DNA of 64,000 bases from Schmidtea polychroa. Lineage: Eukaryota. Positions 26,959-64,000 of this stretch are shown piece by piece; positions within the stretch are counted from its first letter, which is position 1, and the number at the start of each line of letters is the position of its first letter. The stretch spans positions 11,286,001 to 11,350,000 of the forward strand of contig CM097885.1 of NCBI GenBank assembly GCA_044892525.1, written 5' to 3'. A program made the position numbers and the translations under genes. The notes beneath the pieces were generated by a model, which did no database searches, had not been told where the DNA came from, and saw only the letters and a program-made list of their open reading frames with translations.

Positions 26959-27487
26959 ATGTCGCAACCAAATTTTATGGAAAATGTTCTAAACGGAATT
27001 GTCACCGCGAATATAGTCGACAGCCTCAATTTCCTGATCAATCGAACCGAACAAATCATTGAAGGTGAACATATCGATTATCAGCAGATGATGGAGACGG
27101 AATCCCTGGAAACCAAGAAGTATTACTTCAATAGAATATTTCAGTGTCTTTTCGATGAAGACATGAAATGGACAAGGATAATTGTAGGATTCACCTACAT
27201 GAAGATAATCATTGCAAAAGGTCAACATGATTCAGAACATTATTATCATTGGTCTTTAGAAGTAAGATTTCTTTTATAATCTATATTTTAATAATATTCA
27301 TTTCTAGATAATCAAGTCCAAGTTTACCCCATGGATAGAAGCCAATGGCGGATGGGGTGTATTAAATAAACTGGCCTGCAATTTTAAAGAAACTGATGAA
27401 ATCAAAAGAAAAATGAAAAACTATATAAAACTTACAACTGGAGTTGTTATAATGTATATTTTCTGTAGATATATGAATAAAAATTAA
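26959..27487 (+). CDS. Bcl-2-family protein, 160 aa, spliced (26959-27261 and 27308-27487)
   Basis: BH1-like MKWTRIIVGFTY, BH2 PWIEANGGWG and a C-terminal hydrophobic anchor. A 46-nt GT-AG intron gives an intact frame. Confidence 0.88.
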
Positions 27488-37683: not shown

Positions 37684-37696
37684 GATTTATGTGTTT

Positions 37697-39437: not shown

Positions 39438-39594
39438 ATTTTTTTTTTTTTTTTTTTTTTATGTTGAATTGTTTTGTTTTTGTAAATCGAAATAATAGAA
39501 ATAGAAATAATAATAATAGAAATAATATAAGTAATAATAGAAATATTAGAAATAATAATAATAAAAAACAATATTTATAATAAAAACATTAATG

Positions 39595-39700
39595 CAACAT
39601 TAATGCAAATGACATGCAATTTAAACAAAGACATGTAATTTAAACAAAGACATACATCAATCTGATTGGTTGATAAACAATAGTCATAGGTATAAAAACC
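39595..39700 (+). promoter_or_regulatory. Promoter module: octamer ATGCAAAT, AACAAAG, CCAAT box, TATAAAA
   Basis: Motifs lie upstream of the ATG at 39732. The octamer block recurs at 40213 and in copies 1 and 3. Confidence 0.6.
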
Positions 39701-39731
39701 CTGTACCATTTCATTTTAATCATTATTTACG

Positions 39732-40151
39732 ATGACAAAGAAAATTTCAAGCACTGAAAAGCCAAAAGTTGTTCCAGAACTTGTACAACCTGTTCAAATG
39801 TTCCACAACTATAAAATGTATTTTTTAAAAGAAGAAATCAATATAAAATTGGTGTCACCGATCAAGCTAATTCCAACTAAATTTCAATTCTTATCCGGCA
39901 CGCTTTCAATGTTAGATGTTAAATCTATTGATGAGGTTTTCAAACGGTTGAATACGAATCTATCTTGTAATCAACATGCCTGGTTCAACAACAGATATGC
40001 AAGATTTTATGATTCATTTGATGAAATCGGTTTCAAAGAAAACGAAAATTGGTATATAACAATTGCAATCCAAGGATATAAAGTTGATAATAATGATGTG
40101 TATTCTCCAATTTGGAAAATTATGTCTGCTAGACTTTCACAACTATTTTAA
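39732..40151 (+). CDS. Accessory protein, possible OB-fold ssDNA-binding protein
   Basis: Conserved 136-139 aa ORF with an aromatic, beta-rich C-terminus (WYITIAIQGYKV..YSPIWKI). Confidence 0.6.
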   Translation: MTKKISSTEKPKVVPELVQPVQMFHNYKMYFLKEEINIKLVSPIKLIPTKFQFLSGTLSMLDVKSIDEVFKRLNTNLSCNQHAWFNNRYARFYDSFDEIGFKENENWYITIAIQGYKVDNNDVYSPIWKIMSARLSQLF

Positions 40152-40284
40152 TGTTATATTTAATAAATGTATTAGTCATATTTGTTTTTTCTCTTTATTA
40201 ATTGCAACATTAATGCAAATGACATGCAAATTTAACAAAGAAAATCTATAAACAAACTTATAATATAGTTTTAAAGTGTTATTA

Positions 40285-40619
40285 ATGACTACAGAAAAAG
40301 GTTAACATGATTAATTAAATACCGAATTATTTATTATTTAGAATTATTAATCAACTTTTTGTTGGAAAAGTTAGCAGAAATAGCTGGTGTAAAAATTGAG
40401 GATATATTATCTATTACAAATGCCTTAAATATCGGCTGGGTAGCTGAGAGTCAAGATTCAGGATTTGACAATCATGAAGAAACTCAAGAAATTGATGACG
40501 AAATCTATGAACCTATAGAGGAACCTAAAGATAATATTACGAATGATTGTATTGATCATGTCGTTGAAAATATAATGAAATGTGGAGATGACGATTGCGA
40601 ATGTGTTAATAAATTTTAA
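40285..40619 (+). CDS. Small acidic accessory protein (intron 40301-40341)
   Basis: Spliced MTTEKE|LLINFLL frame; DSGF motif, acidic tract and CGDDDCEC tail. Confidence 0.65.
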
Positions 40620-40691
40620 AATTGAATTATTTTCATTTAAATATACTATTAAAAACAATAACATTAATTTTTATTCATATATCTACAGAAA

Positions 40692-40692
<1 letters not shown>

Positions 40693-40755
<63 letters not shown>

Positions 40756-41288
40756 TATGTTTTATTACATTGTTTATTAATACCCTTGCGAGTTGTTGAG
40801 CGTGACCAGTACCCTTGTGAGCAGTACCCATAGGGGGACAGAATATTTTGTCGGATAGACTCGGAGTATATAGATTAATAATATATCAATGAGAACACTA
40901 ACTTGTTGCGTGTGTGGACACTAATAATATTTTTATACATTGTGTGTGTATGACCATAGGGGAACAGAATATTTTGTCGGGTAGACTATATTGTGTGTGT
41001 GTAATAATAAATTTATTTTATTAAACTTTTATCAATAAGTTTTTAAAATACCGCAACGTAATATATATTTTAAAATACCGCAACGTAATATAAATTAAAA
41101 AAAAAATTTTTTTTTAAAAAAATTTAAAAAAAAAAAAAATTTTAAAAAAAAATTTTAAAAAAAAATTTAAAAAAAAAAAAAAAAAACCCCCCCTCCCCCC
41201 GGGGGTGGGGGGTATGACGTAATATGTCTTTGTGACGTCATCGATGACGTCATATGTCTTTGTTCCCGGGTCCACACAATACCCTACT
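40693..41288 (-). repeat. Right terminal inverted repeat of copy 2
   Basis: Reverse complement of 26112-26745. Confidence 0.95.
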
Positions 41289-44493: not shown

Positions 44494-44859
44494 TCATCTT
44501 TTGTCGAGTAACTTTGTAATTTTTATCTTTTCATCTTCTCTTTGATAAGTGGCTAAGATTTTTGAGCTTCCATTCTTCTCCGTTGATGATAATTGTATTT
44601 CCCACGAATTTTCCGTAGTTACCGTTTGGGTTTCCATATCTTTGAGTCTTCGTTTTGCCATTCTCTTTATACGAAGCTCAATTTTCCCCGCCATTTTTAA
44701 TTCCTCTTCCATTGTTATCGTTACTTTATATCTCTTGATGGTTTTCATTGATTCGATGGAATGAAGATTTATTTCCATCTCTTGGATTTCCACAGCTTTT
44801 TCCTTTTGTGGTTTTTCCGGGATTTTGAGTTTACTATATTCCCTTTTTTGATTCATCAT
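44494..44859 (-). CDS. Unknown 121-aa ORF at the 3' end of the retroelement
   Basis: Its start overlaps the exonuclease stop (TAATG); same K/E-rich composition. Confidence 0.45.
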   Translation of the reverse strand: MMNQKREYSKLKIPEKPQKEKAVEIQEMEINLHSIESMKTIKRYKVTITMEEELKMAGKIELRIKRMAKRRLKDMETQTVTTENSWEIQLSSTEKNGSSKILATYQREDEKIKITKLLDKR

Positions 44860-46016
44860 TAGTTGGCGAGTTCTAACTCTTGTAGGGAGTGAGATATCCG
44901 CGTTGGCACTTTTATATCATCTTCCCAATCGCTTTCCAATGCCAAATAAACTCGTCTCACTGCATCCGTATCTTCTCTTGCCGAGTGCGTTCCCTTTTGC
45001 ATTGATATTTGGCATATTTCTTGAGCAATTATCGACAATTTGTACCATTGCCCATTCTTTGTGATTTTCCTTTTCGTTAGAGCTTGGACTGCTGCTAGAT
45101 CCCGAATTCCCCATAAATCATTTGGGTTAACTCCACTATACCTTAATTCATTTTGTAGATCATGTACTACCAATATTTTTCGTGCTGTTAGTTCCTGAAT
45201 TTTCCTTTGGCTCTCATATTGGTCTTCTTGGTTCCTAGACATTTTTTCAGTAATGCCGTGAACCTGTGTAACATAGTTTTTTATTTTTTCTCTCGGAGTT
45301 ATCAAAGCATTATAGATTATTTTCCCGGTATATTCGATGAGGCATACCGCTAGTGGGATCATTCTATTGTCCTCACTTACTCCATATTCGGCATCCATGA
45401 ATATTATATTTTTTCGGATTTCTTCAGTGGTTAAATATTTTCTCAGGAATGACTTTCGGTGTTTCAACATTTCCTCAGTAATTGGGAGCAAGGTATTTTC
45501 TTCTTCTATTGAGATGATTCTTTCTACCGCGTTACTTGTGGGCATTTTACTGCGGCATTCTAATACTAACCACGCGGTTCCATTCGTTGCTCGCATACGT
45601 TTATGCCATGTTTCTTTATCAATTTTCCATGATGAATTGTTTGGCATTGTTCAGGTTATGGTTCCTTCATTGTTTATGATTTCCACTATTCCTTTAAATA
45701 CACGGATCTCCCAATTTTCATCATTTTTCCTCACTAATAATTCGGCTATTTTCATTCTTGATCTCCATTCGATCTCCATTAGACATATCCTCATTTTCTC
45801 ATTGCCTGTTCTTGCCCAATTTGGGATTCTCAGATTTTCTTCGATTACATATGTCTTCTCTATTCGGCTTCTCTTTTCTCTAAGATACTGTGAATATAAT
45901 TTCGCTGGTCTGCTGATTTTCTCCATTTGATATTCTTTGTTTTTCTTCGTTTTCTTCTTTAAAAATTTTGTCAAATCGCTGAAAACAACCATACTCTTAT
46001 ATCCCAACTCTCCCAT
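44859..46016 (-). pseudogene. DEDDh 3'-5' exonuclease (REX4/ISG20-like) with N-terminal extension; one in-frame stop
   Basis: IFMDAEYG, VTQVHGIT, ILVVHDLQNE, IRDLA and HSAREDT motifs. ORF 45651-46016 is in the same frame. Confidence 0.82.
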
Positions 46017-46184
46017 CAGTAGTACAATCGTTTAACCAATCAAATTACAGGAATGATAATTTAATTTTAGATCACGAATAATCACAATACAAGATCACTA
46101 TTAGTCATTTTTATGTAATTATAAAAGGTATGAAAGAAAGAAATACTCTACGATATTAATAGCATGCAACGAAATCATATCTTA

Positions 46185-47360
46185 CTACACCCATGTCTCT
46201 AACTGCTGCGGCTCAGAATATTGATAGTCGCAGATAGAATTGTCATTGTCATTACTTCTCAAGATTAGAACAATGTAGATGAGTAGGATACCACTTGGTA
46301 TTGCCACAATGATACATATGAATAGCAATTCGACACAATTGTTATGAGATGATTTTTCTTTACAGTTTAGTGAAAAGCTTTCGTTTTTTGACCATGAGGG
46401 TTTTACGGTTAATGTTAGATTATGATCACTTATTATTTCTCCAATGGGTTGAGTATGAGGAAGATGAATATGTCTATTTTCAATGAAAGTGACTTTCCAT
46501 TGATCTGAGTTCGCTTTGCGCTTGCAATATTGAATTTTGATCATGAAATTTCTTGGTTTCGGATTAGATACTGAGTTCAAGGTACTCAACTTTGCTCTTT
46601 GTTGGTATTCGTCTAACACCACCTGAATTTTATTATTTACAAAAATATTTACCCTTTGTCTGAGGCCTGGTTGGCGTAACACAATTATTTCATTGTTCTC
46701 AATTTTTATTTGAACTCGATTAGTTTCGTTAACCAAGTGTACTGCTTCATATTGACTCTATCCATTGATTATTCATATACGTCCCATTGTCATGAATGAG
46801 TTTCTCGTAATAATGTATTGAAAGACTGTAAGTGAGATTTTCTTGTAAATTTTTGTATTTAACAAAAGATTTTCTTTTATTTAATGTTTCAATCGTAATG
46901 TTTTGAAAAACAATTCTGACTTTCTGTTGCTCTTCCGCTTTCCAATATACGTGAATTTCATTTATCATCGGTTCAATTTCAGCTAAATTTCTCCATTCAT
47001 TTGTCCAAATGTTAATTTGTATAAGGTTATAAATATTTTGAGTAGTATTTGTTTGATGCGTATATTGTTTAATGGTCCAAGGATATTTGTAATTTGCTGT
47101 CAATCGACGAGCTACATATATGCTTTTCTCATAATTCAACGTAACAGATGGTTCGAAAGGGTTCAATAAATTACTAACTTCTATTTGTTCTGATATTTCA
47201 CAATGATATGTCCACACAATACTAGTAAATGTTGTATATATATATAAATTTTATCCAATAAGGGTACTTTTTCTACTGAATATGGTAGATTCATTGTTAT
47301 TCCACTTGCATTTGCTATGACATTTATTATGACTGTAGTTATAAATAAAACTCTGTTCAT
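46185..47360 (-). pseudogene. Type I membrane protein with FN3-like ectodomain, downstream of integrase
   Basis: Signal-like VLFITTVIINVIANA, EIHVYW..YKNLQENLTYSLSI, TM LLFICIIVAIPSGILLIYIVLIL, and tail ETWV. Confidence 0.55.
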
Positions 47361-47439
47361 ATATCCCAATGGCGTAGGGTTTTTTTGAAATTTTTGTTGA
47401 ATAATTTTTTCATCATTAAGTTTTTTTTGTTTTGATCGT

Positions 47440-48895
47440 AATTGATACTCTATTTCGGATACTTTCTTACATCGATTGGCATGAACTATAATTGTTTCTG
47501 CTCTTTTGTTATTCATTGGACGTAACTTCAAATTAGTTGCTGTAACATCACATACTGTATATGGACCTTTGAATGGTCTTTGTAATTTTATTGATAGGCC
47601 CCTTACTGGCTCCGGCCTGTTTAAATATACTGAATCTCCGATTTTATTCCGTGCTCATGCGCCTTTTTGTCATAGTTTTCTTTATATTTTTCTTGACGAT
47701 ACTTAATTTTTAACCCCGCACGAGTCCATGCAGATTATAATCGTTCTTGTATTATTACTTTATAATTTGGAACGTCCATGTATTGAGACGTTGGGGGTTG
47801 AAATTTCAGGTCAATTGTCATATTGTTTCGTCTCAAATACATTAAATAAAAAGGTGTTTCACCTGTACTCTCGTTAACTGCATTTCGATAGGCAAACAGA
47901 CATGGATTGATAAATAAGTCCCAATCTTTTTGTTTCCGATTTACATACGATGAGATCATATTGATTAAAGTACCATTAAATCTTTCTACTAGCCCGTCTG
48001 TTTGCGGGTGATATGGTGATGTATTTAATTTATAAATACCAAATAATTCGGTAATGGATTTAAATAAATCACTTTGAAAATTTGTTCCTTGATCTATTAA
48101 CAATTTCTTTGGAGCACCATATCTGAATATAATCTTTTCGACAAATATTTGAGCAACTTCTTCCGCTTGTTGATTTGGTATTGCGTACGCCTCTGGCTAT
48201 TTTGTTAAATAATCACAAAATACAATAATATATTTATTTCCATTTGTAGTTTCGGGTAAGGGCCCGATAATATCCATTGCTGAAAATTCTATTGGCACAT
48301 CTGGTATTGGCATTGGTTTTAGTGGGACTTTTATTTTCTTTCCTGTATTCTTTCGAGTTAGACAAATTTTGCACGTATTACACTAATGCTTTACATCTTG
48401 GTCCATTGTATTCCAAAAATACTTTAGTTTTAATCGTGACATTGTTTTTCTTGCTGATAAATGTCCACCCAATGCTCCATCATGATATTGTAACAATAAC
48501 GTATTTCGATGCTTAGTTGGAACAACTATTAATAATTCATCACCTTTAATACACTTTAATATACCTTTGTGAATTACATATTTATGCTTTTCCTCAATTA
48601 ATTGTTTCAATTCACTGTCCTTTTTCATTATCACTGTATGTTTGATTATTTGTTTTAGTTCATCATCCATTTTCTGATCTCGTTGCAGCTCTGACATATT
48701 GTTTGCTGCTTTGATTACTGATAATACTGTATCTCTCAAACTTATTTCTTCCTGGTCAACACTAATTTCCTCATTTGAGATCCTTGACAATGCATCTGCG
48801 TTAGCGTTTGATTTTCCTGTTCGGTATTTTATTTCAAAATCATATTCTTGTAAGGCTATAGACCACCTTATCAATTTGCTTGCTGCATCTCGATG
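47440..48895 (-). pseudogene. Gypsy RNase H end, linker and integrase (HHCC, DDE, GPY/F)
   Basis: RWSIALQEYDFEIKYRTGKSNANADALSR, HDGALGGH..CKIC, MDIIGPLP, DQGTNF, YHPQTDGLVER and FKGPY. Confidence 0.93.
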
Positions 48896-50242
48896 TTACA
48901 TTAACCATTGTAACGGATTATGATCTGTATAAACAATAAATTTCCGACCCACTAGATATTGTCGAAATGTTGTTATCCCATATACCAAAGCTAAAGTTTC
49001 TTTTTCAATTGTTGAATAATTTTTCTCATGGGGTTTCAGTGATCGGCTAGCATATGCAATGACATGATCCTTTTCTCCTTCTACTTTTTGCCCCAACACT
49101 GCCCCTAATGCAAAACCACTTGCATCTGTCATTAATATGAACATCTTTGTAAAATCTGGGCATCGCAATATTGGATTAATTATAAGATTTTGTTTGAGAA
49201 TTTCGAAAGCATCTTGTTGAGCTTTATTCCACGTAAATTTAAGAGTTTTCTTTAATAACATTGTTAATGGTTGAGCAATATGTGCAAAGTTTCTAATAAA
49301 TTTTCTATAATAACTTGCTAACCCGAGAAACTGTCTGACGTCATCAACATTTTTTGGAATAGGATATTCTTGGATTTTCTTAACATTATCTGGATTTGGT
49401 TGTAAACCCCTCCGTGAGATAATATGTCCAACATATACTACCTCTGACTTACCCCATTCACATTTTGATGGTTTGATTTTGAGACTTGCTTCTCTAAGCC
49501 GTTTAAATACTGTCTCATCTCTCACATGCTCCTCAAAGTCACTTGAAAATATTATAATATCATCTATGTACACTAAAGCATGTGGGATATCTCTCAGTAC
49601 AAAATTCATTCCTCTTTGAAATGTTGCTGGTGCATCTGTCAAACCAAATGGTAAAACATTAAATTCATACAAACCTTTTCCATCTGAGAATGCTGTTTTT
49701 CCTTTATCTGATTCTTTAACTTTGAATTGATTATACCCTTTATTTAAATCAATAACAGTAAAATATTGAGCTTCTCCCATTTTGTCGAACATTTCCTGAG
49801 GAACTGGGATTGGATATGTATCCTTTCTTGTAACTTGGTTCAATTTTCGATAATCGATACAAAATCTTATTTCACCGTCTTTCTTCTTAACAACAACAAT
49901 GGATGAAGAAAATGGTGAAAAACTGTCTCTGATGATATTGAAATCCTTCATCGCCTTTATTTGTCTATCACTTTCCTCTTGATGTGCATAAGGAATTCTG
50001 TATGGTCGTAGTTTAATTGGAGTCTCATCCATTAATGGAATTTCGTGCTCAATTACATGAGTAACTCCTAGATCATATTCATGTTTTGCAAAGACGTCTT
50101 GATATTTTCTCAATAATTTCATAAATGTTTGTATTTGTTCTTGGGTCAAATCTTTACTGTTTACTTGAGGTTCTTTGTATATTTTTATATTTTTTGGTAA
50201 TCTTTTATTGTCCATTTTTAAGATTTTTGTCAATTTTCCCAA
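48896..50242 (-). CDS. Gypsy reverse transcriptase and RNase H (polyprotein segment)
   Basis: RFCIDYRKLN, LPFGL, YIDDIIIFS, TDASGFALGAVL and YTDHNPL. Confidence 0.96.
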   Translation of the reverse strand: MGKLTKILKMDNKRLPKNIKIYKEPQVNSKDLTQEQIQTFMKLLRKYQDVFAKHEYDLGVTHVIEHEIPLMDETPIKLRPYRIPYAHQEESDRQIKAMKDFNIIRDSFSPFSSSIVVVKKKDGEIRFCIDYRKLNQVTRKDTYPIPVPQEMFDKMGEAQYFTVIDLNKGYNQFKVKESDKGKTAFSDGKGLYEFNVLPFGLTDAPATFQRGMNFVLRDIPHALVYIDDIIIFSSDFEEHVRDETVFKRLREASLKIKPSKCEWGKSEVVYVGHIISRRGLQPNPDNVKKIQEYPIPKNVDDVRQFLGLASYYRKFIRNFAHIAQPLTMLLKKTLKFTWNKAQQDAFEILKQNLIINPILRCPDFTKMFILMTDASGFALGAVLGQKVEGEKDHVIAYASRSLKPHEKNYSTIEKETLALVYGITTFRQYLVGRKFIVYTDHNPLQWLM

Positions 50243-50269
50243 TTTCGTTTTTGGTCTTAATGCTATTTC

Positions 50270-50830
50270 TTAATCATTATTGTTGGTAATATAAACAGGA
50301 ATTAATTGGTCTTGGACTTTTACTAGTTCATCGCACATGGGGATATCATACTTTTCGATTAATGTTTCACTTGGTTGAAATATAAATTCATCATCTGGAA
50401 CTCCCATTGTATTCACATAACAAATAACTTCACTTTGAGGTGGAACTCTTAATGTTTGGTTTAGAAACACGTCTCCTGTTTCATGAATGGCTTTCCCCGT
50501 TTCTTCCATAATCAAATTTCCCGTTTTCAAATCAAGACAAACTCCTTCTAGCTGTGCTAAAACATCCATACCCACTAAGCATTCCACTGGACAATTTTGC
50601 ATTATTAGAACATCATGAGCAATTTCCTGATTTCCAATATTGAACTTGACTCTAATCTGCCCAATAATATTTAGTTTGTTTTTCGTCATTGATCGTACCA
50701 CTTCTTCTGTACTTCTCATTTGTGCTTTCTCATCTGAATTCAACACTTCGTCTGATAATATCGTATTACTCGAACCTGAATCTAATCATGCTTCAACTCT
50801 ATGTTTATTTACTTGTACCCATATTCTTGG
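50270..50830 (-). pseudogene. Gypsy aspartic protease and spacer
   Basis: LDSGSSNTIL catalytic motif and CLVGMDVL. In frame with the upstream glycoprotein and downstream RT, separated only by stops. Confidence 0.88.
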
Positions 50831-53142
50831 TTATCTGCCTCTGTTTCCGACTGTCATTAGCGCATAATTTCCTGGTAATCCCAGCATATTTCTCCTTTCA
50901 ATTTCTGCACTTGTCGGTATAATTTGCTCATTTGTTAATTCAATATTCTCAATTGGCCTCATTTCCTTTAGGTTTTCCACTGGATATATTGGTGCTGTTG
51001 GAATAAAAGTTTTTGGAATACATAATCGACTGAAAGTGTCTGTTCCACTTGCCTGTGGTACTGTATGTAATAAACTCATAGATTTAGATTTTTCCTTTAT
51101 ATCATTTATTTTTGTTTTATTATTTTTATAATAATACATAGGGGGTACTCTTGGTTTATCATTATCATTATCCCCATATCCACTTCCATTACTCGAACTT
51201 GAATCAATATTTCTTTTATTGTTAGTTAGTCGTGATTTTACTTTCCCCATTTCTTTGTATTGATGCTTGGTAATCAGAAATCTGGCCAAGAACGGTATGC
51301 ATCCAATAATCAATTTCCATGACCAACCAGATATAACATATAATTGGTGTGTAGTTAATATTTGAGATATTATTACCTTTGTCATCACTATTATAACATA
51401 AATTCCAATCAATCCCGCACACGCTTGTCCTAAAAACATAAATTTTCCCCATATATTTTTCATCGTATTATACGTTGCCTTTTTATAATGATCTGGTGTT
51501 AATAGATAATCATAGTTTACTTTTCCTTCACCTCCTGGTAGTATAGTATCAATCATTTCAGTTATTACTCGTTCCTTTTTCGATGGAAATAACAAATTCA
51601 TTCTAGCTTCCTCAACATCTTCTTGAGAATACAATCCGGTTTGTGCTAATTTATCCAATGATGTGAAATTTATTAAATACTCAAGCTTTGTTAATTCGAG
51701 CTTTTCTGGAGTTTTTACTCCTTTGTGATCTGGTAACGATATCCATGAATCTGATGTTAATCGATATAATGGTGCGAGTAATCTGTTGCATTTTAAAACC
51801 TTTGGTTTTACGTCTTCCTCTAACAATATCCGAGTTATTGGTTCCATAAATCTTAGTTTACCATTGGCACTCACTGGTAATTCATTTGTGCATTGTTCGT
51901 GTTTTATAATTTGTACGGAAATTTCATTGCATTTATAGCTATACAACGCTTCACCAAATATCCTTGCAAATACACCGTTTTCCGATATTAACATAGGTGC
52001 TACTAAATTCGGATTTGTGACCGCCATCGCCATTCTATTTCGTAATATTTCTTTGTTTAATTTACAATCGTTTAATATCATTTCTCGATAAATATTTTCC
52101 ACAATGCTTTGGCTGTAATGGAAAAGATAATCTATTTTGTTATTGAAATAATTTGTCAATTTAATATCTGTACTATGTATTTTAATTTGAGCTTCCTCGA
52201 CTCTTTTCTTGGACACATAAATCCCTTTATAATTCGTCTCATACACCGTTTGGCCGCACTTATCCACTACTCGTTTTCGTATGAATCTCATCCCATCGTC
52301 CAATAAAGTTGACATCAGAACTACTGGAGTTTTTCTCTTTCTCAATCGCGTAATTTTAACTGTCATATCCGGCTTTGCTTCCACATTCAATCTTTCCGGT
52401 CTATCTCTCAATTGCTCGCCACTCATTTCACTGAAACTCATTGATTTCAAATGTATCAAGTTACACAAGTTTTTCTTTACTTCATATACCAAAATCGATT
52501 CTCCTGTTTGACAACTGGTCTGTTTCATATTACAGAATGGATGAGTTTGTAATTTGCCTGTATCATCGTCAAAAGCTCCTTTAAATTCTCTCAATTCTGT
52601 TAAATATTCCTCCATCACAACAACTTTGTCAATAATTTGCCCATTCATTTTGTATGGTTCGCCTTCACAATCACCATTGGCCTTTATCACCTCTTTTTCA
52701 ATAATCGTTTCTCGTATTGCATGATTCAATTTAGCCTTCAATTTAATTTCGGGACTTATTTTCAATTCTCCGGTCTGGAATGCAGCCATGCATTTTCTGG
52801 ATTTACATCAACTGGCGTTGGTATTGCATACATTTTTATTAATGATGTGTGACTCCATTTGCCACAATAGAATACAAAACTTGTTCTTTTCACAATACAT
52901 TCTCTCACCGTGGCATGTCTAAATCCAGACTCTTGATATACATAGTATTTTACATCTTTTTCCACTGTTAAACTCAGTGGATGTGCATCTGGACATTCTG
53001 TCATATCTACCATCGAATATACCTTTCCCATTTTTGTTTGAGAACAGCCATAAGCGATTAAAGACGTCGTTTGAGTTGTAATTGCACATAATATCATAAT
53101 CATGAACATTAAAAATGGAAATTTCATGGTGTTTCGTTTCAA
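50831..53142 (-). pseudogene. Chuvirus-like / gB-like (class III-type) envelope glycoprotein; frameshift near 52790
   Basis: Signal peptide, LIAYGC..YSMVD..EC, YCGKWSH, Y.NNKIDY, GEALYSYKC, CTNELPV..FMEPITRIL and C-terminal TM segments. Confidence 0.8.
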
Positions 53143-53762
53143 GACCCCTTATAATTTTCTCTCAATTCCACAACTGGTTTTATTTTTTGTTTAAGCGGCT
53201 TTTCCCAACCTCCATTCTCTTTTACCCATTTGCCAACATGTTTATGTAAAACTTTACTCGCCGTTTTTATTATTTCCTCTTGATTTTCCATATCTGAGCA
53301 ATCATAGGTTCCGATTTCTAACAAAATATAACTCATAATTGTTAATACCATATCTCTATCTATTTTCCCTGTCATCATCTCAGTTATCACATTATCATCG
53401 CAAAATTCCATACCTTCTTTTGCTTGTTTTAACACTACACAAAATCTCTTTTTAACTTTCTCTGCGATTTTTCTCACATATTTCTCAACTTGTATCCTCT
53501 CTGTTGATTCACCATATAATTCGTTTACTAGAGCACGTACAATTTTCTCAGTTTCCTTTGAGTCTTTCTGATCTTTCTCCTCTTGAAATTTCTGTATTAT
53601 TTTACATCTTATTTCATACAAATTTCTGCATTGTTTTTCTTTAATATCATTATCAATCGTCATCTTGGTCATATATGCCTCATTTTTAACTTCAGTTCTC
53701 ATTTCATTTTCAACAATAATCTGCTCCGCTTCATTTTCTATTTCATCTTTTTCAGTCTTCAT
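53139..53762 (-). CDS. Bcl-2-like domain in the retroelement polyprotein region
   Basis: BH3-like YVRKIAEKV, BH1-position KIDRDMVLTIMSY and BH2 VGKWVKENGGWE. Confidence 0.65.
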   Translation of the reverse strand: MKTEKDEIENEAEQIIVENEMRTEVKNEAYMTKMTIDNDIKEKQCRNLYEIRCKIIQKFQEEKDQKDSKETEKIVRALVNELYGESTERIQVEKYVRKIAEKVKKRFCVVLKQAKEGMEFCDDNVITEMMTGKIDRDMVLTIMSYILLEIGTYDCSDMENQEEIIKTASKVLHKHVGKWVKENGGWEKPLKQKIKPVVELRENYKGS

Positions 53763-53790
53763 CTCATTTTTAACAATAATCTCTCCAGTT

Positions 53791-54742
53791 TCATTTTTTT
53801 ATTACATCTCTTTTCATTTCTTGTTCATCGTGCATCTCATCATCATTACTCATTATCTCATTTTCCCAGTTCGGTAATTCCATTTTATTGCTTTCTTCTA
53901 CTTCCTTTGATTCAAATTGTTTCATCGCAACTAAATCATTAATAAACGTTTCCTGATTCGCCAAAGATCCATTTTCATCAAATTTTCGTGGTACACAGCC
54001 ACAATCAAATAAGTACTCATCATCATCATCTAACTCAAAACCTTTGTATGTCAATACAATTATTCCATCACTGCCCATAATTTCTGCTGCTCTCCGTCGT
54101 ATTTTACTCACTTTCGTACACCAATGCTCGTTGGTACATTCCACTTCTTGATCATTTATTTTTAACATTATTACGAATGGCTCAATATAAACTCCTTTTT
54201 CTCTAAATTCTTGTCCAAATTTACGAATAAGCTATTTTATCATTTCACTATATTTATTATCAGAATTTACATAGGATCTGACACAATCTAAAATTTTTAA
54301 TTTATCTTCCACTTCAAATTCTAAATTCAAAATATTATTTAATTTATCAATAATATCACCTGTGTCTCCCTTGATCAATGCGTCATTTAATTCAAATTTA
54401 ATTTTATTGACATCATATTTGACTGGTTTTTCATTGGCAATCATGCTCACTATTTGTATCTCATTTTCAACGCCGGGGATCAATCCACAATCTATCAAAA
54501 ATTCGTCGTCTTCCAACACTCGATTCATAAATCTAAGTTCTACTGCCCAAACTTCACATTTGTGCATTATTTCTCTTTTTAACTCGCGTATTTTCCGTAT
54601 GCCTTAATTTGATACTCGGATTTGATGTCGCCTGATGTATTTGTTTTAATAAATATCGGGTCTAACCATTTGATTTTTCGTAGAGTTTGGCCAAATTCTT
54701 TCATATACTTTTCAAATACATCTCGCTTTTCCACACTTGCTG
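53791..54742 (-). pseudogene. Two tandem ubiquitin-like domains (disrupted)
   Basis: IFIKT..G...KIRELKREI..ELRFMNRVLEDDEFLIDCGL and KVSKIRRRA..VLTYKGFELDDDDEYLFDCG follow the ubiquitin fold pattern. Confidence 0.62.
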
Positions 54743-55144
54743 AGTAGATGGTATGGTCACCGCTAGAACAGGTCACCGCTGGAACAAAGACATTTTTTAC
54801 CCCACCCCCCCCGCCGGCCGGAAAAAATTAAAAAAATTTTTTTTTTCAAGAACAAAGACATATGACTCATCCGATGACTCATCAAGCATTGAAGGTCAAC
54901 TTAAGAACAAAGACATATGACTCATCAATGATATATAATTATTATTATTTTTAAAAATATTATTATTTCTAATGTCTTTGTTCCAGCGGTGACCTACTAT
55001 TTGGCCTGCCAAAAGTTATCGTTCACATCAACTTATTTCATCGATCGATAGCTTATTTTGAAGCTTGGTGCAAGACCTTTCGAATGAGCTATTGTTGTCA
55101 TCACCATCTTTAATATTGACAAAGTTATTAACATTTTCCCAAGA

Positions 55145-55216
<72 letters not shown>

Positions 55217-55351
55217 GAGTATTAATCTATATACTCCGAGTTTATCCGACAAAATATTTTGTCCCCCTATGGGTAATGCTCAAAAGGGTACTGCTCACGC
55301 TCAACAACTCACAAGGGTATTATTAAACAAATCAACAAAACATACATTTAT

Positions 55352-55848
55352 TTAAACAATAAAATAATGTAAAATTAACAAAGGTAAACTAAATATTGAT
55401 GTACTATTCGCAGCAATATTGTTTGAAATTGGTAACGTTGAATTGATTTTCAGATATTCTATTGATCCTTTGATTGTTTGAATTTCTCTTAATAATAATT
55501 CAATCTTTTTTAATAAATAATCATGCTTCTTATCAATAATTTTCATATTCTTTTAATTTTCAACAATAGAGTTATTGAAAACTTCAATATGATCAATCAA
55601 TTTAATTTTTATATTTATATATATGCAAATGATAGTTCATAACTGTTTTCTAAATTCTCCAATCTTTGAGATATTCTTTTTCCTGGATGCTTTGACCATT
55701 TTGGTTTGTCGAGAATATATAAAATATCCATCAACTTGGCTGTATTCGGACAAACACATATTGATTTATTAAAAGACTCCACTGTTATTGTTGTATTGTG
55801 TGAGCACACACTCGTTATAATAATTAACAATATGAATATAGTTTTCAT
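55352..55848 (-). pseudogene. Secreted coiled-coil TIR gene, disrupted
   Basis: Homologous to 8879-9379. Confidence 0.6.
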
Positions 55849-55953
55849 GGTGTATCAAATCAAAACCTTTCTTTTACATTTATAGTCTATCAACCAATCA
55901 AAATCATACGGTATTAGTATAAATAAAACATCATATTTTAAATTATTGTAGAA

Positions 55954-56468
55954 ATGTCTCATTTTATGGAAAATCTTTTAAGTGAAATTATAAACAAGAA
56001 CATTCTGGAAAGCCTGAGTTTCCTAGTGGACCGGGCCGAAAAGATAATTGAAGGAAATCATATCGATTATCAGGATATGATCAATTCTGAGTGCCTGGAA
56101 ACGAAAAAATTCTATTTTCATAGGATTTTTAACTGCCTATGCGACGAGGAGATGAATTGGACCCGAATACTAGTAGGGTTCGCTTATATGAAGATAATAA
56201 TAGAAAAAAGTTTATGGGACTCGGAACATTATTATCAGTAGTCTCAAGAAGTAATACTTTTATAATCTATATTTTATTATTATTTATTTTCTAGATAATC
56301 AAGTCAAAGTTTCAACCATAGATTGAAGCCAATGGCGGATGGGGCGTACTGAATCAACTCGCCAGAAATGCGAAGGAAATAGATCAACAGAAAATTAAAT
56401 TTAAAAACTATATAAAACTTGCAACAGGTGTTGCTATTTTGTATGTTTTATGCCGGTTTTTTAAATAA
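55954..56468 (+). pseudogene. Bcl-2-family gene (intron 56251-56294), two Trp-to-stop changes
   Basis: MNWTRILVGFAY (BH1), P*IEANGGWG (BH2) and a TM tail. Confidence 0.87.
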
Positions 56469-56545
56469 AAATTAATATAGTTATTTTGTTTGATTTTTAA
56501 ATAAAAGTTTAAATAAATTTACAAACACTAATTAACTAAGATTTA

Positions 56546-56928
56546 TTAATTAACACATTCGCAGTCGTCATCTCCACATTTCATTATATTTTCAACGACA
56601 TGATCAATACAATCATACGTAATATTATCTTTAGGTTCATCTTTAGGTTCCTCTATAGGTTCCTCTATAGGTTCATCTATAGGTTCATAGATTTCCTCAT
56701 CAATTTCTTGAGTATCAGTTTCTTGAGTTTCTTCCTCCTCATCATCAAATCCTGTATCTTGACTCTCAACCATCCATCCGATATTTAAGGCATTTGTAAT
56801 AGATAATATGTCCTCAATTTTCACACCAGCTATTTCTGCTAACTTTTCCAACAAAAAGTTGATTAAAAATTCTAAATAATAAATAATTCGGTAATTAATT
56901 AATCATGTTAACCTTTTTCTGCAGTCAT
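56546..56928 (-). CDS. Small acidic accessory protein (one intron)
   Basis: Homologous to 40285-40619. Confidence 0.65.
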
Positions 56929-57061
56929 TTTCATCACTTTAAAGATATATTATAAGTTTGTTTATAGATTTTCTTTGTTAAATTTGCATGTCATTTGCAT
57001 TTATGTTGCAATTAATAAAGAGAAAAAACAAATCTGACTAATACATTTATTAAATATAACA

Positions 57062-57472
57062 CTAAAATATTTGTGAAAGTCTAGCAGACATAATTTTCCA
57101 AATAGGAGAATATACATCATTATTATCAACTTTATATCCCTGGATTGCCATAGTTATATACCAATTTTCATTTTCCTTGAAACTGATTTCATCAAAAGCA
57201 TCATAAAATCTTGCATATCTATTGTTGAACCATGCATGTTGATTACATGATAGATTCGAATCTATCCGTTTAAAAACATCATCAATTGTTTTGACATCAA
57301 TCATTGAAAGCGTGACGGATAAGAATTGAAATTTAGTTGGAATTAGCTTGACTGGTGCAACCAATTTCATATTGATTTCTTCTTTCAAAAAATACATTTT
57401 GTAGTTATGAAAGATTTGAACTGGTTGTACCATTTCTTTAGGTTTTTCGGTGCATGAAATTTTCTTGGTCAT
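57062..57472 (-). CDS. Possible OB-fold SSB accessory protein
   Basis: Homologous to 39732-40151. Confidence 0.6.
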   Translation of the reverse strand: MTKKISCTEKPKEMVQPVQIFHNYKMYFLKEEINMKLVAPVKLIPTKFQFLSVTLSMIDVKTIDDVFKRIDSNLSCNQHAWFNNRYARFYDAFDEISFKENENWYITMAIQGYKVDNNDVYSPIWKIMSARLSQIF

Positions 57473-57800
57473 AGTGAATAATGATGAAATTGAAATGTTA
57501 CAGGGTTTTTATACCTTTGACTCATGCCTATCAACCAATCAGATTATAGCATGTCTTTGTTTAAATTTGCATGTCATTTGCATTAATGCTGCATTTATGT
57601 TCTATTAATGTTTTATTATTACTATTATTATTTATATTATTTCTATTATTACTATTCATATTTCTATTATTTCTATTATTATTATTATTACTATTCATAT
57701 TTCTATTATTTCTATTATTATTACTATTATTATTACTATTATTATTTATTACTATTTCAAATATAAAATAAAAAAAAACACAACAGATACAAAAATACAT

Positions 57801-58218
57801 TTATTCATAACCTAAATCAACAATCCGGGAGTAGTGAAACCTTCTCAGAGTTTTCACTAACTCCCATTCGACATATCGCCGATATCGATCGGCACAGCAT
57901 GAGCATCCGATGATGCATTGGTACTCCGGCTCCATTTGTCTCATAGTTCTGTTGATTTTGATATCCCATAAAAATTGGTGGAATACCTCCATGATTCTTA
58001 TTTGGGTTGAATAAAAAATCAAATCAGGTATGATTTCCGGTTCCCGATCTTTGATTACTTCAGCAATTTGCGGATAATAATATTTTATCCTATTGATCAT
58101 TATTTCTAAATATTTTTCTAAAATAATAAATATAAAAAAATGTGAAAATAAAAATTTTAAATTTACCGTAGTCGTCAATATCTTTCATTAGATTTGCTGC
58201 GCTTGGAATTTTGTACAT
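57801..58218 (-). CDS. CxxGCxCC accessory protein (one intron)
   Basis: Homologous to 6520-6936. Confidence 0.65.
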
Positions 58219-58292
58219 TTTGTTGAATAAATGAATCCTAAACAAAAAACCGTTTGTTTAAATCAATCAATAACCAATTAGAAATTAACCAA

Positions 58293-58730
58293 TTAGAAAT
58301 CGACCAATGAAATTATCTCATTTCGAACATTGTCAACAAATTCTCTATACTCCAAATTTCTCAACTCCAGCATGACAACCTTTCCACTAGCAAACACGTT
58401 GACACATATAGGGTTATATTTTAATAGTCTTAGTGCCGGAAACAATTCCGGTTCAAACATACAATCACATTTTTTCGACATGTTATATAGATTGATACTA
58501 TGTCCCATATCCATAGTAACGGTAATTGATTGGATTATAATATTATTTATTCGATATTGTAATTTATTAATATCCAAAGGTTTCTTACATCCCATGATTC
58601 TACATTTGCCTGTCTTGAAAAATATTATCGGATATTTCCCGCTTCTATCGATAATTTGCTGGGGTTTCCCTGGTGGGAACCTCATATTCGATACATCAAA
58701 ATTTCCTCAATAATTTATATTTGCTAACAT
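58293..58730 (-). pseudogene. TBP-like gene with an early CGA-to-TGA stop
   Basis: Near-identical to 6008-6445. Confidence 0.85.
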
Positions 58731-58833
58731 TATTAAATCATTTATGAAAATTAGTCTTTATATACAAATTGAGCACGAGTTCATTAAATCATCGAATATA
58801 AACAAATACTCGTATATTTATAAAATTTTTGAA

Positions 58834-59460
58834 ATGGAATTAAGAAATGATGCAGTATACCAAATCGTTGGTCCGAGCGGTAGTGGAAAAACATTATTTG
58901 TTTGTAAATTATTAAAATCAGATTTATTGAAATCAAAATTCAACAAGATTTATTGGCATAGGGGTGCTGATGAAGAACATGGATTAACTCAATCAAGTTT
59001 CTGTAAATTAAAAAACATGAACATTGTAAAGGGATTCGATAAAAACTGGTCCAGCCGATTAAAGAAAGGTGATGTCATTATTATCGATGATTTGTATCAA
59101 GAAGCTAATAAAGAAAAAGATTTCAATAATTTATTTACAAAGATCAGCAGACATGTCGGTGTAACAGTTATTTTCATAAAACAAAATCTATTTCATCAAG
59201 GTGGGGCACATCGAACACGTAATTTAAATGTACAATATTTAGTTATTTTCAAGAATCCTAGAGATGCAACAGTGATTGATTTTCTTGCACGTCAAGCATA
59301 CCCTAACAATCGTAATTTTCTTATCAGTGCATTTCAAGATGCTACAAAAATACCTCATGGATATATATTTCTTGATTTCACACAACAATGTCCCGATGAT
59401 TTACGTGTAAAAACAGATATCTTCAACCCAAAAGGTGCCATGGTTTATAAACAAAGTTGA
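58834..59460 (+). CDS. Packaging ATPase
   Basis: GPSGSGKT and IIIDDL motifs. Confidence 0.92.
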   Translation: MELRNDAVYQIVGPSGSGKTLFVCKLLKSDLLKSKFNKIYWHRGADEEHGLTQSSFCKLKNMNIVKGFDKNWSSRLKKGDVIIIDDLYQEANKEKDFNNLFTKISRHVGVTVIFIKQNLFHQGGAHRTRNLNVQYLVIFKNPRDATVIDFLARQAYPNNRNFLISAFQDATKIPHGYIFLDFTQQCPDDLRVKTDIFNPKGAMVYKQS

Positions 59461-59478
59461 AAACCTCTATGAATAATA

Positions 59479-59997
59479 ATGTTTCTAAAAGCAAGGGTGA
59501 AAAATATTAGGAAATTAAGAAAAAGTATTAGAAAGAGTATTAAAGTTCCAAAAGTTCCACCAACAACTAGTTATACACTATCTAAAAAACTTGTAACTGA
59601 AAATTTCTCTGCAATGAATCTTATTTCGAAAAATCCTAAACCTAAACGTAAAACCCGTAAAACCAGTAAAAAAGTAGTTAAAAATCATCGCAGTTTTCCA
59701 TTTTTTAATGCATTGTTAAAAGCCCCGAGTATGAAAAGATTGAATATATTGCAATCATTCCCAAATTTTGTTGTCGATGATTTACTCAATATTATACTTA
59801 AAGTAGTCAAAGGCAAAATTAAAATCACTAAATCAAAAAAGCATTTATTGAGCAAACATAGGAAACCATTGTTATCTTTAGTAAATAATAAAAATCGTAA
59901 GCAAATGAGGAAAATTATATATAAACAACAAGGTGGATTTATTGGTGCATTGATACCTCTGGCATCATCATTATTAGGTGGAGTTACACAGTCATAA
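59479..59997 (+). CDS. Basic core protein with QQGG|F site
   Basis: Near-identical to 4735-5259. Confidence 0.72.
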   Translation: MFLKARVKNIRKLRKSIRKSIKVPKVPPTTSYTLSKKLVTENFSAMNLISKNPKPKRKTRKTSKKVVKNHRSFPFFNALLKAPSMKRLNILQSFPNFVVDDLLNIILKVVKGKIKITKSKKHLLSKHRKPLLSLVNNKNRKQMRKIIYKQQGGFIGALIPLASSLLGGVTQS

Positions 59998-60000
59998 ACA

Positions 60001-60228
60001 ATGGGTGCTAATCCTTCATTACCCGACATTAAATTTAATTTTAAATCTTCTTGTTGTAATGGAGAAGATTTGGACGAACCCAGAAGACGAAGCCGGTTTC
60101 GGTGGAGTGGCAAAATTAAAGAAAAGAGTTCCGAATTCGAAAAAAGAAACCCAGAAGTGGTTATCAGATCAGCTTGCGTACAGTTTGAACAAACCAATGC
60201 GGAAAAGATTTCCAACAAGAGCGTATAA
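60001..60228 (+). CDS. Small MGxxxS ORF overlapping the integrase
   Basis: Third copy of the 75-aa ORF. Confidence 0.5.
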   Translation: MGANPSLPDIKFNFKSSCCNGEDLDEPRRRSRFRWSGKIKEKSSEFEKRNPEVVIRSACVQFEQTNAEKISNKSV

Positions 60229-60446
60229 AACATTTGGTATTGACGATTTATGGAAAATGGATTTGATGGAGATGATACCTTATTCGAAAATTAACAATGG
60301 AAATAAATATATTTTAACATGTATTAATGTATACAGCAGGTTTGCACGAGCAATACCAGTCAAGGCAAAATCTGCAGAAGAAATGTCCAAGGCAATTAAT
60401 ATTTTATTTAAAGATGGACATCCTAATAACTTGCAAACAGATTTAG

Positions 60447-60508
<62 letters not shown>

Positions 60509-61095
60509 GTTATTATTATTATTATTATTTTAGGTAAAGAATTCTACAATAGCAAAGTTAAGCAAATCCTCGATAAACTGAAAATAAATCACTACTCGGT
60601 ACATTCTCAATACAAAGCTGCCCATGTTGAAAGATTTAATCGAACATTAAAAGATAGATTAAAGAAATTGTTCGTGCATCAAGGTAATAAAAATGGGTAA
60701 ATGCTTTACCGAAAATAATAACAAGTTATAATCATTCATCACATCGAGGACTGAATGGATTGAGACCGGTTGATATTACATCAAAAACATCATTGACTTT
60801 TAAGAAATCTGTAAAAATTGCAAAACCTAAATATAAAGTCGGTGACCATGTTAGAATTAGTAAAATTAGTGCATCACCATTTATTAAAAATTTAGATACA
60901 AATTGGAGTGATGAAGTCTTTGTAATTTCAAAAATAAATACTAAACAGAATCCTGTAATGTATGTCATCAAAGACAATGATAATAATATTGTACAAGGGA
61001 AATTTTATGAGCAGGAATTACAAGTCATTCCACCCCCAAAAGTATTTAGAATTCAAAAAATATTGAAAACTAAAAAGGTCGGTAAGGATAAACAA
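60059..61095 (+). pseudogene. Polinton integrase (intron 60447-60533), frameshifted and split by the hAT insertion; resumes at 63955
   Basis: DDE motifs present. 1-bp loss near 60690. Chromodomain codons continue after the TSD. Confidence 0.92.
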
Positions 61096-63946
61096 TAGGA
61101 TGGAGTGAAAATTTTTTTTTCTTAATATCTTGTTTGGATAGCTATAAAAACTTGGTAACACATGCAATTAGTAATGTGGCAAACAATTAGACAATTTAAA
61201 GCATATCTTGAGGTTCCACAATTGACCTAAAGTATAGGCACATTTCGATAAAAAAGCAATAATCTTTAAAAAAAACATTTTTTTATAAGTAACATATTTA
61301 TGTTATGGTTTAACTTTTTAACAGTCTGTACATAACATTACAAGTAATAAGAACCATATCTGTGAAGGGAAACCACATGCAAACTGTCTAACATGTTTTT
61401 ATAACTACAAATGATGTTGGGCTTTGGTGTCCAGTTTTGGCATTTTCAATCTCGATTCCAAGCGTGCTCTAATGAATCCGTCGCGTTTTTCTGGACCACA
61501 CACCATTTCGGATGCTTCTGTCACTAGCTTGATATGTCTCTCTACTGCCTGGGTGTGACAAGGATAGCGGGCGAAATCCAGTCTTGGCGTTTCTTCTTCC
61601 CGGATCATGGTTAACAAAGTATCTTCGTCAATGTCCACTACGATTGGAGGCTCTGTGATCGGAGTTTTCTGCCAATCGATCATGTCTATGTAGCTAGTAG
61701 CTTCAAAGTTGATTACTGGCACGAAGAAAGATCTAACTGAAGTCGTACGTTTCTGCTTTCTGGATTTCAGTATGCGTCGCAGAGCTAACTCGCGTATATC
61801 TGATCTTTCATCGGTAAGCATCGCAAGCAACAGATTTTCTGGATGACTAAAGAATGCGTTGCGTTGAATTACCGGGTCAACAACTTTCTTCAGCTCGTCT
61901 GTGAGGTAGCGTGATTTCAGTATCGTACTGTGGACATGTCGAGCGCCGTCTTTACACGAAGGGGTATTCTTTATTTCAAACCATGCAGGTGCATAAACTG
62001 TTACGATGAAGGTAGCAAGCGTCTTTAGTTCATCCGACGGGCTTCTTGTGGCAACATACAGACGTAGTATGCGATTAGCCGTGGTTAACCATCTCGAATG
62101 GTTGATAAGACCAGGATTGCGAAGTGAATGGTCGACAGGACAAATACCAACACTTACAGCAGTACACAAATCGAACAGGTATTTCTGATCTGTACTTAAA
62201 TCGTCGGAATTTGCACTTGACGGTAGAACACAGTTTATCGGCATGTAGTCAACGATGGGAAGCTTCTCACAATTCAACAATGACTTTCCAATGGGACCAG
62301 AAAATCCTTTTGGACCATTGGTAGGTCCATCGAGATACTGAAACAAATGTCTTAACGGTAATTCGTTTGCATGCAACTGACATACGAACCACTGTAGCGG
62401 TCTGTGTAACGTCACTTCAAGTAATCGAATGATGCCTCCTCGAATGCCCGTATTAGTGGCTGTCCCATCACAACCTATTGCTTTTATGCCACTCGTGTCA
62501 ACATTTCTTTTATTCAAATATGCAATCAACTCAGCCGTGATAACTTTGCTTGACCCTGCAGTTGGTGTAATGTGACCGAAATATGTAGCTCCTGGTTCGG
62601 CTATAATCGATATATGTTCTTCAGTTATTATTTTCCGATGAAATTTACCATCGCATTCTTTAATTTGGGTCATTGTATTGTCTTTTCTGCCGTCAAAATA
62701 TAACCCAGTGATTGTGTTACTGACTTCGGCACATAATGCGCCACGCTTATTACAACGTTCTCGACGCACTTTACTTCTGTCAATCACTTTAGAAACATCA
62801 TGTTCGTGGATTATTCCAACATCTTGAAGAACAGCACTGGCGATTCCTGCTGCCGCCCTGTCGGATACGCCATGTCGATCACACGCTAAAGCCAACGACG
62901 GTAGCTTAACTCTCATCTGCTTGTCATTCAATTTTCGCGGTTGTTTAATTTGGCTTATACAATCGTCATCAGAGTCATCATCGCCGGTATCCATTTCCTC
63001 TTCCATTCCAGAAATCTCGTCACAGACATCCGACTGTTTATCACCGATGTCATCAATGGCAGATTTGGTACACATCTGCCTCTGTGTCGACTCTTTACGG
63101 ATATACCGCTTTTGTAATATACTGGATTCAAACTCATCAACTCCAGCTATGATCATACAGCGTGAACCCCGCTGATCTTCTAGAAAGTCACGTTCAATTG
63201 TGGGTATCTTTCTTGACTTCTCACAGTGACACTGAGACATACAAGAGCACTTGCAGGAGCAAATGTCAAAGAGTTTAATCGATTCATCTTTAAACTGCGA
63301 TATTTTCTCTCTGTATGGTTCTGAGTCCTTCCTAGATTTATACGGCTTCAGCAATTTCATGAACGTCTTGTGGTACACGTTCAACATTTCATGAACACGG
63401 CGGTGGCTTACATGTGGTATGGAAGCTTTGTCCCATATTTGTTCTACTTTCATTGACACTGTTTCTGCCACGTTGCGATGTGAAGGATCTTTATTGGTCA
63501 ATTCGCATTTCAGTCTCTGCTTTGTCAGGTTGTAGAATTTCATAACATCTGCATAAGTCGGTAGTTGATTGTCGGGCATCTCGGATGGACCACCAAAGAT
63601 GACACAAGACACTTTCTTTCTGGTTACAGCCATTGCAACTCTAAAAAGGAAAACCAGAGGCATTTAAAATCCATAGTGTATGGGTGGCAAATATTTTGCT
63701 ATTAAAAGTAATGAAAATATTATTTAAATGCCATCAATGACTTCAATAATATGTCAATAATAGCAAATACATTATCGTTTTCTTATCAATGGTTACATTT
63801 TAAAGTTGGTTGTGGAACCTCAAGACATTATTTAAATTATTGTTTTTCTTTACAGAGTACTTCATTGGACCTCATAGCAAGTTTTTATAACTATCCAAAG
63901 TCTACTAAGTCAAAAAAATTTTTTCGGTCATTTTCACTCCACCCTA
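61096..63946 (-). mobile_element. hAT-superfamily (hATm-like) DNA transposon, 2851 bp
   Basis: TIRs TAGGATGGAGTGAAAA and TTTTCACTCCACCCTA; 8-bp TSD ATAAACAA at 61088-61095 and 63947-63954; subterminal inverted blocks. Confidence 0.93.
61405..63663 (-). CDS. DDE transposase (hATm-like), intact
   Basis: YFDGRKD, GCDGTATNTG, CQLHANEL, HSRWLTTA and HTQAVERHIK motifs. Confidence 0.9.
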   Translation of the reverse strand: MPLVFLFRVAMAVTRKKVSCVIFGGPSEMPDNQLPTYADVMKFYNLTKQRLKCELTNKDPSHRNVAETVSMKVEQIWDKASIPHVSHRRVHEMLNVYHKTFMKLLKPYKSRKDSEPYREKISQFKDESIKLFDICSCKCSCMSQCHCEKSRKIPTIERDFLEDQRGSRCMIIAGVDEFESSILQKRYIRKESTQRQMCTKSAIDDIGDKQSDVCDEISGMEEEMDTGDDDSDDDCISQIKQPRKLNDKQMRVKLPSLALACDRHGVSDRAAAGIASAVLQDVGIIHEHDVSKVIDRSKVRRERCNKRGALCAEVSNTITGLYFDGRKDNTMTQIKECDGKFHRKIITEEHISIIAEPGATYFGHITPTAGSSKVITAELIAYLNKRNVDTSGIKAIGCDGTATNTGIRGGIIRLLEVTLHRPLQWFVCQLHANELPLRHLFQYLDGPTNGPKGFSGPIGKSLLNCEKLPIVDYMPINCVLPSSANSDDLSTDQKYLFDLCTAVSVGICPVDHSLRNPGLINHSRWLTTANRILRLYVATRSPSDELKTLATFIVTVYAPAWFEIKNTPSCKDGARHVHSTILKSRYLTDELKKVVDPVIQRNAFFSHPENLLLAMLTDERSDIRELALRRILKSRKQKRTTSVRSFFVPVINFEATSYIDMIDWQKTPITEPPIVVDIDEDTLLTMIREEETPRLDFARYPCHTQAVERHIKLVTEASEMVCGPEKRDGFIRARLESRLKMPKLDTKAQHHL

Positions 63947-64000
63947 ATAAACAATACTATGTCAAATGGCATGGTTATCAAAACCCGTCATGGATATCAG

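Follow-up and report, generated by a model that had tools for sequence, protein, structure and literature searches.

A diverged domain that likely adopts the Bcl-2 fold lies directly before the envelope glycoprotein (env) of a broken, likely Burro-type Ty3/gypsy retroelement in the 64,000-nucleotide stretch of Schmidtea polychroa DNA analyzed here (hereafter the window). The Bcl-2-like module is real, but it matches the family weakly. We favor, with better than even but far from full confidence, the reading that in working copies of this env-carrying element the domain is cut from one polyprotein and likely holds back host-cell death.

The retroelement lies on the minus strand. Two ubiquitin/SUMO-like units (53791..54603; one stop between them, the first unit cut by a frame change) are located upstream of the Bcl-2-like domain. 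Downstream of the domain are the env leader with an N-terminal piece of env (52762..53148; PF24664, E 2.9e-12), the main env, which is a Monjiviricetes-type fusion glycoprotein (50831..52807; PF24664, E 3.1e-71), an aspartic protease followed by a ~90-aa stretch (50270..50830; Pfam protease E ~0.002), and a Ty3/gypsy reverse transcriptase (RT), RNase H and integrase (47181..50269) that are broken by stops and a frame change. The domain order is thus ubiquitin-like, Bcl-2-like, env, protease, RT, RNase H and integrase. The main env shares its frame with the protease-RT-RNase H-integrase part when 4 stops are read through as X, and from 52807 to the integrase core there is a single, stop-interrupted frame. 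The top PDB matches of the RT region were Ty3 RT (E 2.8e-76 and 7e-76). Accessory ORFs downstream of the integrase (44494..47250, minus strand) contain a hydrophobic leader-like stretch, beta-rich pieces, a TM helix and a DEDD-type exonuclease (45650-44859, minus strand; RNase_T E 3.4e-05); the rest of this region gave no Pfam match at E<=0.1 apart from a weak Apc5_N. It is possible that the 44494-47250 region encodes a second membrane protein of the element. No LTR pair for the retroelement was found in the window.

A protein search based on env found 3 relatives among 5921 candidates. The env of P0003 and that of P0004 are 43% and 44% identical, respectively, to the env of the window; the third match, P0005, a piece of env fused with unrelated sequence, was excluded. 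P0003 (2099 aa) consists of gag, one CCHC knuckle, one ubiquitin-like unit, an acidic linker, env and proteases; with gag-env-PR in one ORF it is a compact relative of the Burro layout. No Bcl-2-like stretch was found in P0003 (z -0.4 against the window domain). In P0004 a Bcl-2-like stretch shares its frame with the env leader, the two being about as far apart as in the window (~53 codons). Since P0003 lacks the domain that P0004 has, the two make a natural comparison for the contribution of the module. Both proteins carry two tandem aspartic-protease domains after env, and the window element shows one.

The same domain order has been published for Burro/GYPSM1, the planarian giant gypsy-like LTR retroelements. 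Section 7 of PMC6431247 gives it as Ubi2/SUMO-like (PF11976), BCL2-like, mononegaviral-fusion-glycoprotein-like env, PR, dUTPase-like and RT, and describes decayed Burro copies with stops and frameshifts. The window element shares with Burro the order Ubi2/SUMO-like, BCL2-like, env, PR, spacer and RT-RNase H-integrase, an env in frame with pol, a multi-copy state and decayed copies, a likeness drawn from the published description and not from Burro sequences. The two upstream units of the window align to each other and to the unit of P0003. The P0003 unit matches PF11976, the family named for Burro (E 0.0034, one of three aligned members); the window's own two units gave no PF11976 match. A three-row profile of the ubiquitin-like units returned ubiquitin-like proteins in 5/6 PDB rows, at weak E values of 0.4-1.1. 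The ~90-aa stretch at the position of the Burro dUTPase-like unit had no Pfam or PDB match. The gag of Burro with its CCHC knuckles, the MATH, BIR and ankyrin parts, the ~5000-aa ORF1 and the full size (>30 kb with LTRs) lie beyond what the window covers, the 5' part having been cut off by a Polinton; the exonuclease and TM ORFs downstream are unnamed in section 7 of PMC6431247. Judged on the parts inside the window, the element probably belongs to the Burro-type giant retroelements of flatworms. A Bcl-2-like domain before env is already known for Burro, so this is not a new system. GAG-ENV-POL errantiviruses, reported from Platyhelminthes, Nematoda and Bryozoa (PMC13524379), likewise have env between gag and pol; the main text of that paper has 0 mentions of 'Bcl' or 'Burro'. 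Burro and Polintons are reported as piRNA targets, and Burro as abundant in planarian genomes (PMC8532177, PMC11410931).

The window copy is broken at several places. A Polinton inserted at 54743 severs the gag side of the retroelement from the window, and a contig of run X7 departs from the window sequence at 54742. Frame changes flank the Bcl-2-like ORF on both sides; the ORF closes with a stop and does not share its frame with the env leader, so that a fused protein is impossible from this copy. The family is multi-copy, with 3071, 1933, 352 and 90 contigs in the four runs (4/4), whose identity ranges from 99+% down to less than 90%. Since other copies differ in length from the window copy at several of the frame changes, including the Bcl-2/env junction, decay of the window copy is the best interpretation of the breaks. 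The length of an acidic repeat linker also differs among copies in the public runs (53744-53851).

This acidic repeat linker makes up the first ~75 residues (about 53798-53570, minus strand) of the Bcl-2-like ORF, a minus-strand frame of 219 aa between stops (53798-53139), and it is not Bcl-2. The first ATG of the ORF, at 53762, was considered as the true start and judged unlikely: in P0003 a single frame runs from the ubiquitin-like units into this region, and the first residues after the ATG are repeat linker. The Bcl-2-like domain itself (about 53555-53190, minus strand) is helical and ends in BH2, and its tblastn homologue in P0004 corresponds to 53399-53181. As the first-pass annotation had it, the domain contains no intron and carries a BH2, WVKENGGW (53228-53205, minus strand). 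The BH3 and BH1 helices proposed there did not fare as well, being assigned by position only (BH1-position helix at 53381, minus strand). The canonical BH1 NWGR is absent: when placed by alignment to 6v4m, the window has KIDRD-M and P0004 has ITDSK-V. Since NWGR is missing, we class the retroelement domain as Bcl-2-like and not as a canonical Bcl-2 member.

The Pfam Bcl-2 profile matched the whole ORF with E 0.0013 (19.7 bits) and the last 153 aa with E 0.00056 (20.9 bits, profile positions 47-100), scores that do not attain the PF00452 gathering score of 31.4 bits. In a PDB sequence search all of the best 60 of 92 matches (E<=10) were Bcl-2 family, and the top one was BFL-1 (E 0.0053) over residues 152-196, which cover helix 6 and BH2. 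The Bcl-2 scores of the window domain are in fact carried mostly by helix 6 plus BH2. The BH2 pattern W-x-x-x-x-G-G-W is present after helix 6 both in the window and in P0004 (WIRSKGGW). In a post-hoc test, W[IVLM]xxxGGW occurred in 0/5000 residue shuffles of the 3268 aa of the element, and W[IVL]xxxGGW occurs 3 times in the six-frame translation of the window, the other two occurrences being the Polinton Bcl-2 copies discussed below.

P0004 provides the second line of evidence. Its N-terminal stretch matched the window domain with z 10.2 (0/2000 shuffles; 20.3-20.7 bits) at about 23% identity, and by tblastn P0004 is colinear with the window from Bcl-2 into env. When BH2 and everything after it were removed, z fell to 2.8 (50/3000 shuffles) and the best local alignment was out of register. 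The P0004 domain alone matched Pfam Bcl-2 with E 0.2 and PDB 6v4m with E 0.17 across BH1-BH2 (one of two matches). The Bcl-2 identity is supported because the BH2 motif and the Pfam and PDB matches point to Bcl-2 alone, and because P0004 weakly and independently matches Bcl-2 at the same place.

Structure prediction added little to this identification. AlphaFold models of the domain were of low confidence both from a single sequence (pLDDT 45.9) and from two sequences (57.7). With these models, 44/45 rows among the Foldseek matches listed were Bcl-2 family in both PDB searches; these rows had TM 0.17-0.27 and rmsd 12-19, no match reached E<=0.001, and neither low-confidence model packs as Bcl-2. 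The Foldseek rows for these models reflect sequence and helix pattern, not packing. With a weak model, the best E of a BFVD structural search was 0.57, and a wide VIA structural search placed no Bcl-2 chain among its best 50 rows (best Z 6.5, none >=8). When the Bcl-2 ORF was used as a sequence query, relatives numbered 0/133 candidates, 0/160 longer candidates and 0 at E<=0.001 among 1.84 billion representatives, and the ESM Atlas gave no usable match to this ORF; these results prove neither novelty nor absence. No locus was confirmed in viral_contigs, queried with env, the retroelement Bcl-2, the Polinton Bcl-2 and an env alignment, or in metagenome_contigs. The wide structural search, the Pfam score under the cut-off and three sequence searches without relatives would all be expected if the stretch were a helical polyprotein linker with a BH2-like motif acquired by chance or convergence. 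We consider this very unlikely, given that the motif does not arise in the shuffled sequences, that its position is kept in P0004, which matches Bcl-2 across BH1-BH2, and that BCL2 is annotated at the same position in published Burro (PMC6431247). The Bcl-2 fold of the window domain is likely.

Bcl-2-like genes are also present in the Polintons of the window. Copy B (26962..27487, plus strand; Pfam E 0.00078) has two exons with a predicted 46-nt GT-AG intron at 27262-27307, BH1 MKWTR, BH2 WIEANGGW and its own C-terminal hydrophobic tail; its exon 1, with 20.4 bits, is also under the PF00452 gathering score. Copy C (55957..56471, plus strand; Pfam E 0.0033) is broken by stops, and further broken copies lie near 418-830 (plus strand) and 8270-8800 (minus strand). 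Bcl-2 cargo in Polintons is already in print. Adintoviruses carry Bcl2 and IAP homologues (PMC8502044), and in keeping with this the Polinton of the window has a Bcl-2-like accessory gene; the BFVD entry A0A5H3CWZ2, 'Bcl2 [Branchiostoma lancelet adintovirus]', is the adintovirus comparator. Whereas the Polinton Bcl-2 is a free-standing two-exon gene with a BH1 W-x-R and its own tail, the retroelement domain lacks both and is embedded in a polyprotein.

The retroelement domain had been described as a second, independent capture dissimilar to the Polinton Bcl-2. The dissimilarity is borne out: the likeness between the window domain and the Polinton Bcl-2 is confined to the 8-residue BH2 (z 2.5, 56/2000 shuffles; 4.8 bits), and without BH2 it is at chance (z -0.2). 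In a profile-profile comparison, the alignment between the retroelement and Polinton domains was limited to 19 columns around BH2 (Prob 60). A four-row alignment that included Polinton exon 1 placed BH1 opposite BH2 and was discarded. Introns are expected to be lost in anything carried through an RNA stage. Since the element passes through RNA, the absence of introns is uninformative on independent capture.

The comparison of P0004 with copy B gave a different picture, with z 9.5 (0/2000 shuffles) and 17.9-19.5 bits, nearly as much as the 20.3-20.7 bits of P0004 against the window domain and more than the 15.3 bits of the best PDB Bcl-2 match of the P0004 domain. This score, together with the physical nesting of the two elements, the Polinton being inserted at 54743, is what could be expected if there had been one capture followed by transfer between elements, either because the retroelement acquired the Polinton Bcl-2 as a spliced mRNA or because both descend from a common mobile Bcl-2 ancestor, in which case the cargoes would not be independent. 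However, the margin over an unrelated Bcl-2 is only 3-4 bits, the P0004 match falls to z 2.4 (76/3000 shuffles) once BH2 is removed, the window domain is then at chance against the Polinton, and a shared ancestor in the host lineage gives the same pattern. A single capture is on this balance quite unlikely. The four compared domains are short and roughly 20% identical, and since the score margins are small, they do not discriminate two captures of host paralogues from a single transfer. From the sequences, separate capture of the Polinton Bcl-2 and of the retroelement's domain appears most likely, because the Polinton Bcl-2 keeps the BH1 W-x-R, an intron and its own tail.

As to function, we infer an anti-apoptotic role for the window domain and go no further, because its BH1 is without NWGR. 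The Arg of NWGR makes the hallmark BH3 contact (PMC7719400). Compact, diverged Bcl-2-like domains are found in virus-like elements in the cases of ORFV125, DPV022, N1L and A49, as here; those are separate genes of dsDNA viruses, whereas the window domain belongs to the polyprotein of a retroelement and has lost even the Gly-Arg retained in ORFV125. Some viral Bcl-2 folds serve other functions: vaccinia A49 is reported to have a Bcl-2 fold without the function (PMC4358236), and N1L to act mainly on NF-kB (PMC11209288). With these precedents, it is conceivable that the fold has been re-used, so that the domain is no BH3-binding apoptosis inhibitor but blocks innate signaling, as some poxviral Bcl-2-like proteins do, or is a structural spacer before env. 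The BH1 Gly-Arg is lost in 2/2 retroelement domains, the domains are ~23% identical while env keeps 44%, and P0003 has no such domain, all of which would fit. We nevertheless regard re-use as rather unlikely: the BH2 W..GGW is kept in both retroelement domains, several viral Bcl-2s without BH motifs are reported to still bind Bak, Bax and Bim (PMC11209288), and other Burro1 cargo is reported to be anti-apoptotic. The Burro1 IAP region protects stem cells from caspase-mediated apoptosis, as stated second-hand in PMC13465017, and section 7 of PMC6431247 (2019) links Burro domains to apoptosis control. The suggestion in the first-pass annotation that apoptosis is a shared host defence is therefore in line with the Burro1 IAP (PMC13465017) and with the adintovirus Bcl2/IAP homologues (PMC8502044), but it is not a new idea.

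In the anti-apoptotic reading that we prefer, a spliced host Bcl-2-family mRNA would have entered the element lineage in a single origin, and the domain would be optional in that lineage, P0003 being without it. The N-terminus of the domain would be freed by the element's protease, while cleavage by signal peptidase would follow the internal env leader. Should the polar linker of 21-32 residues contain no protease site, the leader would remain attached to the domain and anchor it in the ER. A rough motif search gave no protease site at this junction, a result that does not decide the matter. Once released, the domain would bind host pro-apoptotic Bcl-2 proteins, through a groove that would be non-canonical because the BH1 Gly-Arg is absent, act alongside the IAP cargo reported for Burro1, and delay apoptosis of the cell making the element.

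The position of the domain directly before the env signal sequence, also claimed earlier, was found as described and is the layout already published for Burro (PMC6431247). The leader starts at ATG 53127 and contains the hydrophobic stretch FLMFMIMILCAI, with a hydrophobic core of ~12 residues by hydropathy; judged by eye, cleavage would fall near 53061. A Met immediately preceding the leader is absent from both P0003 and P0004, so the leader is an internal signal sequence. In flavivirus and hepacivirus polyproteins internal signal peptides remain as ER anchors. With domain and leader in one frame in P0004, it is plausible that the env signal sequence may serve as the membrane anchor of the Bcl-2-like domain. 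Counting against this are the hydrophobic core of only ~12 residues, the polar linker, which could be cut, and P0003, which has the same leader without the Bcl-2 domain. If the leader is the anchor, one peptide would serve two products of a retroelement polyprotein. We tentatively suggest, as a possibility well short of even, that the leader, left as an ER tail anchor, couples env synthesis and death blockade 1:1, and that transfer of the Bcl-2 module may have taken place between Polintons and Burro-type elements that share a genome. A literature search, whose reach did not extend to the Dev Cell 2026 Burro1 paper and Grohme 2018, returned no paper on an env leader as a Bcl-2 anchor and no joint Burro/Polinton Bcl-2 tree, and the literature found contained no test of the Burro BCL2-like domain, its release or anchoring, or its origin. 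The remaining interest is thus mechanistic and concerns the release, anchoring and origin of the Burro BCL2-like domain.

Several other features of the window were noted. The Polinton inserted into the retroelement (54743..64000) starts with AGTAG at 54743 and gave A32 ATPase, rve and TBP matches. It is one of at least three related Polinton copies (368-9585, 26457-40949 and 54743-64000), which are 88-99% alike in blocks, and ATT microsatellite expansions break several Polinton genes. The TBP-like Polinton gene is miniature (58293-58706, minus strand; PF00352, E 5.2e-14). A DNA transposon (61108-63922) is inserted into the Polinton integrase region; its terminal inverted repeats of ~114 nt (61108-61221 and 63810-63922) are 73% alike, and it has an open ORF of 752 aa (63663-61405) with no good Pfam match. 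Between Polinton copies lies a host gene of the Nup205/Nup192 family with many exons (12443-21891, plus strand).
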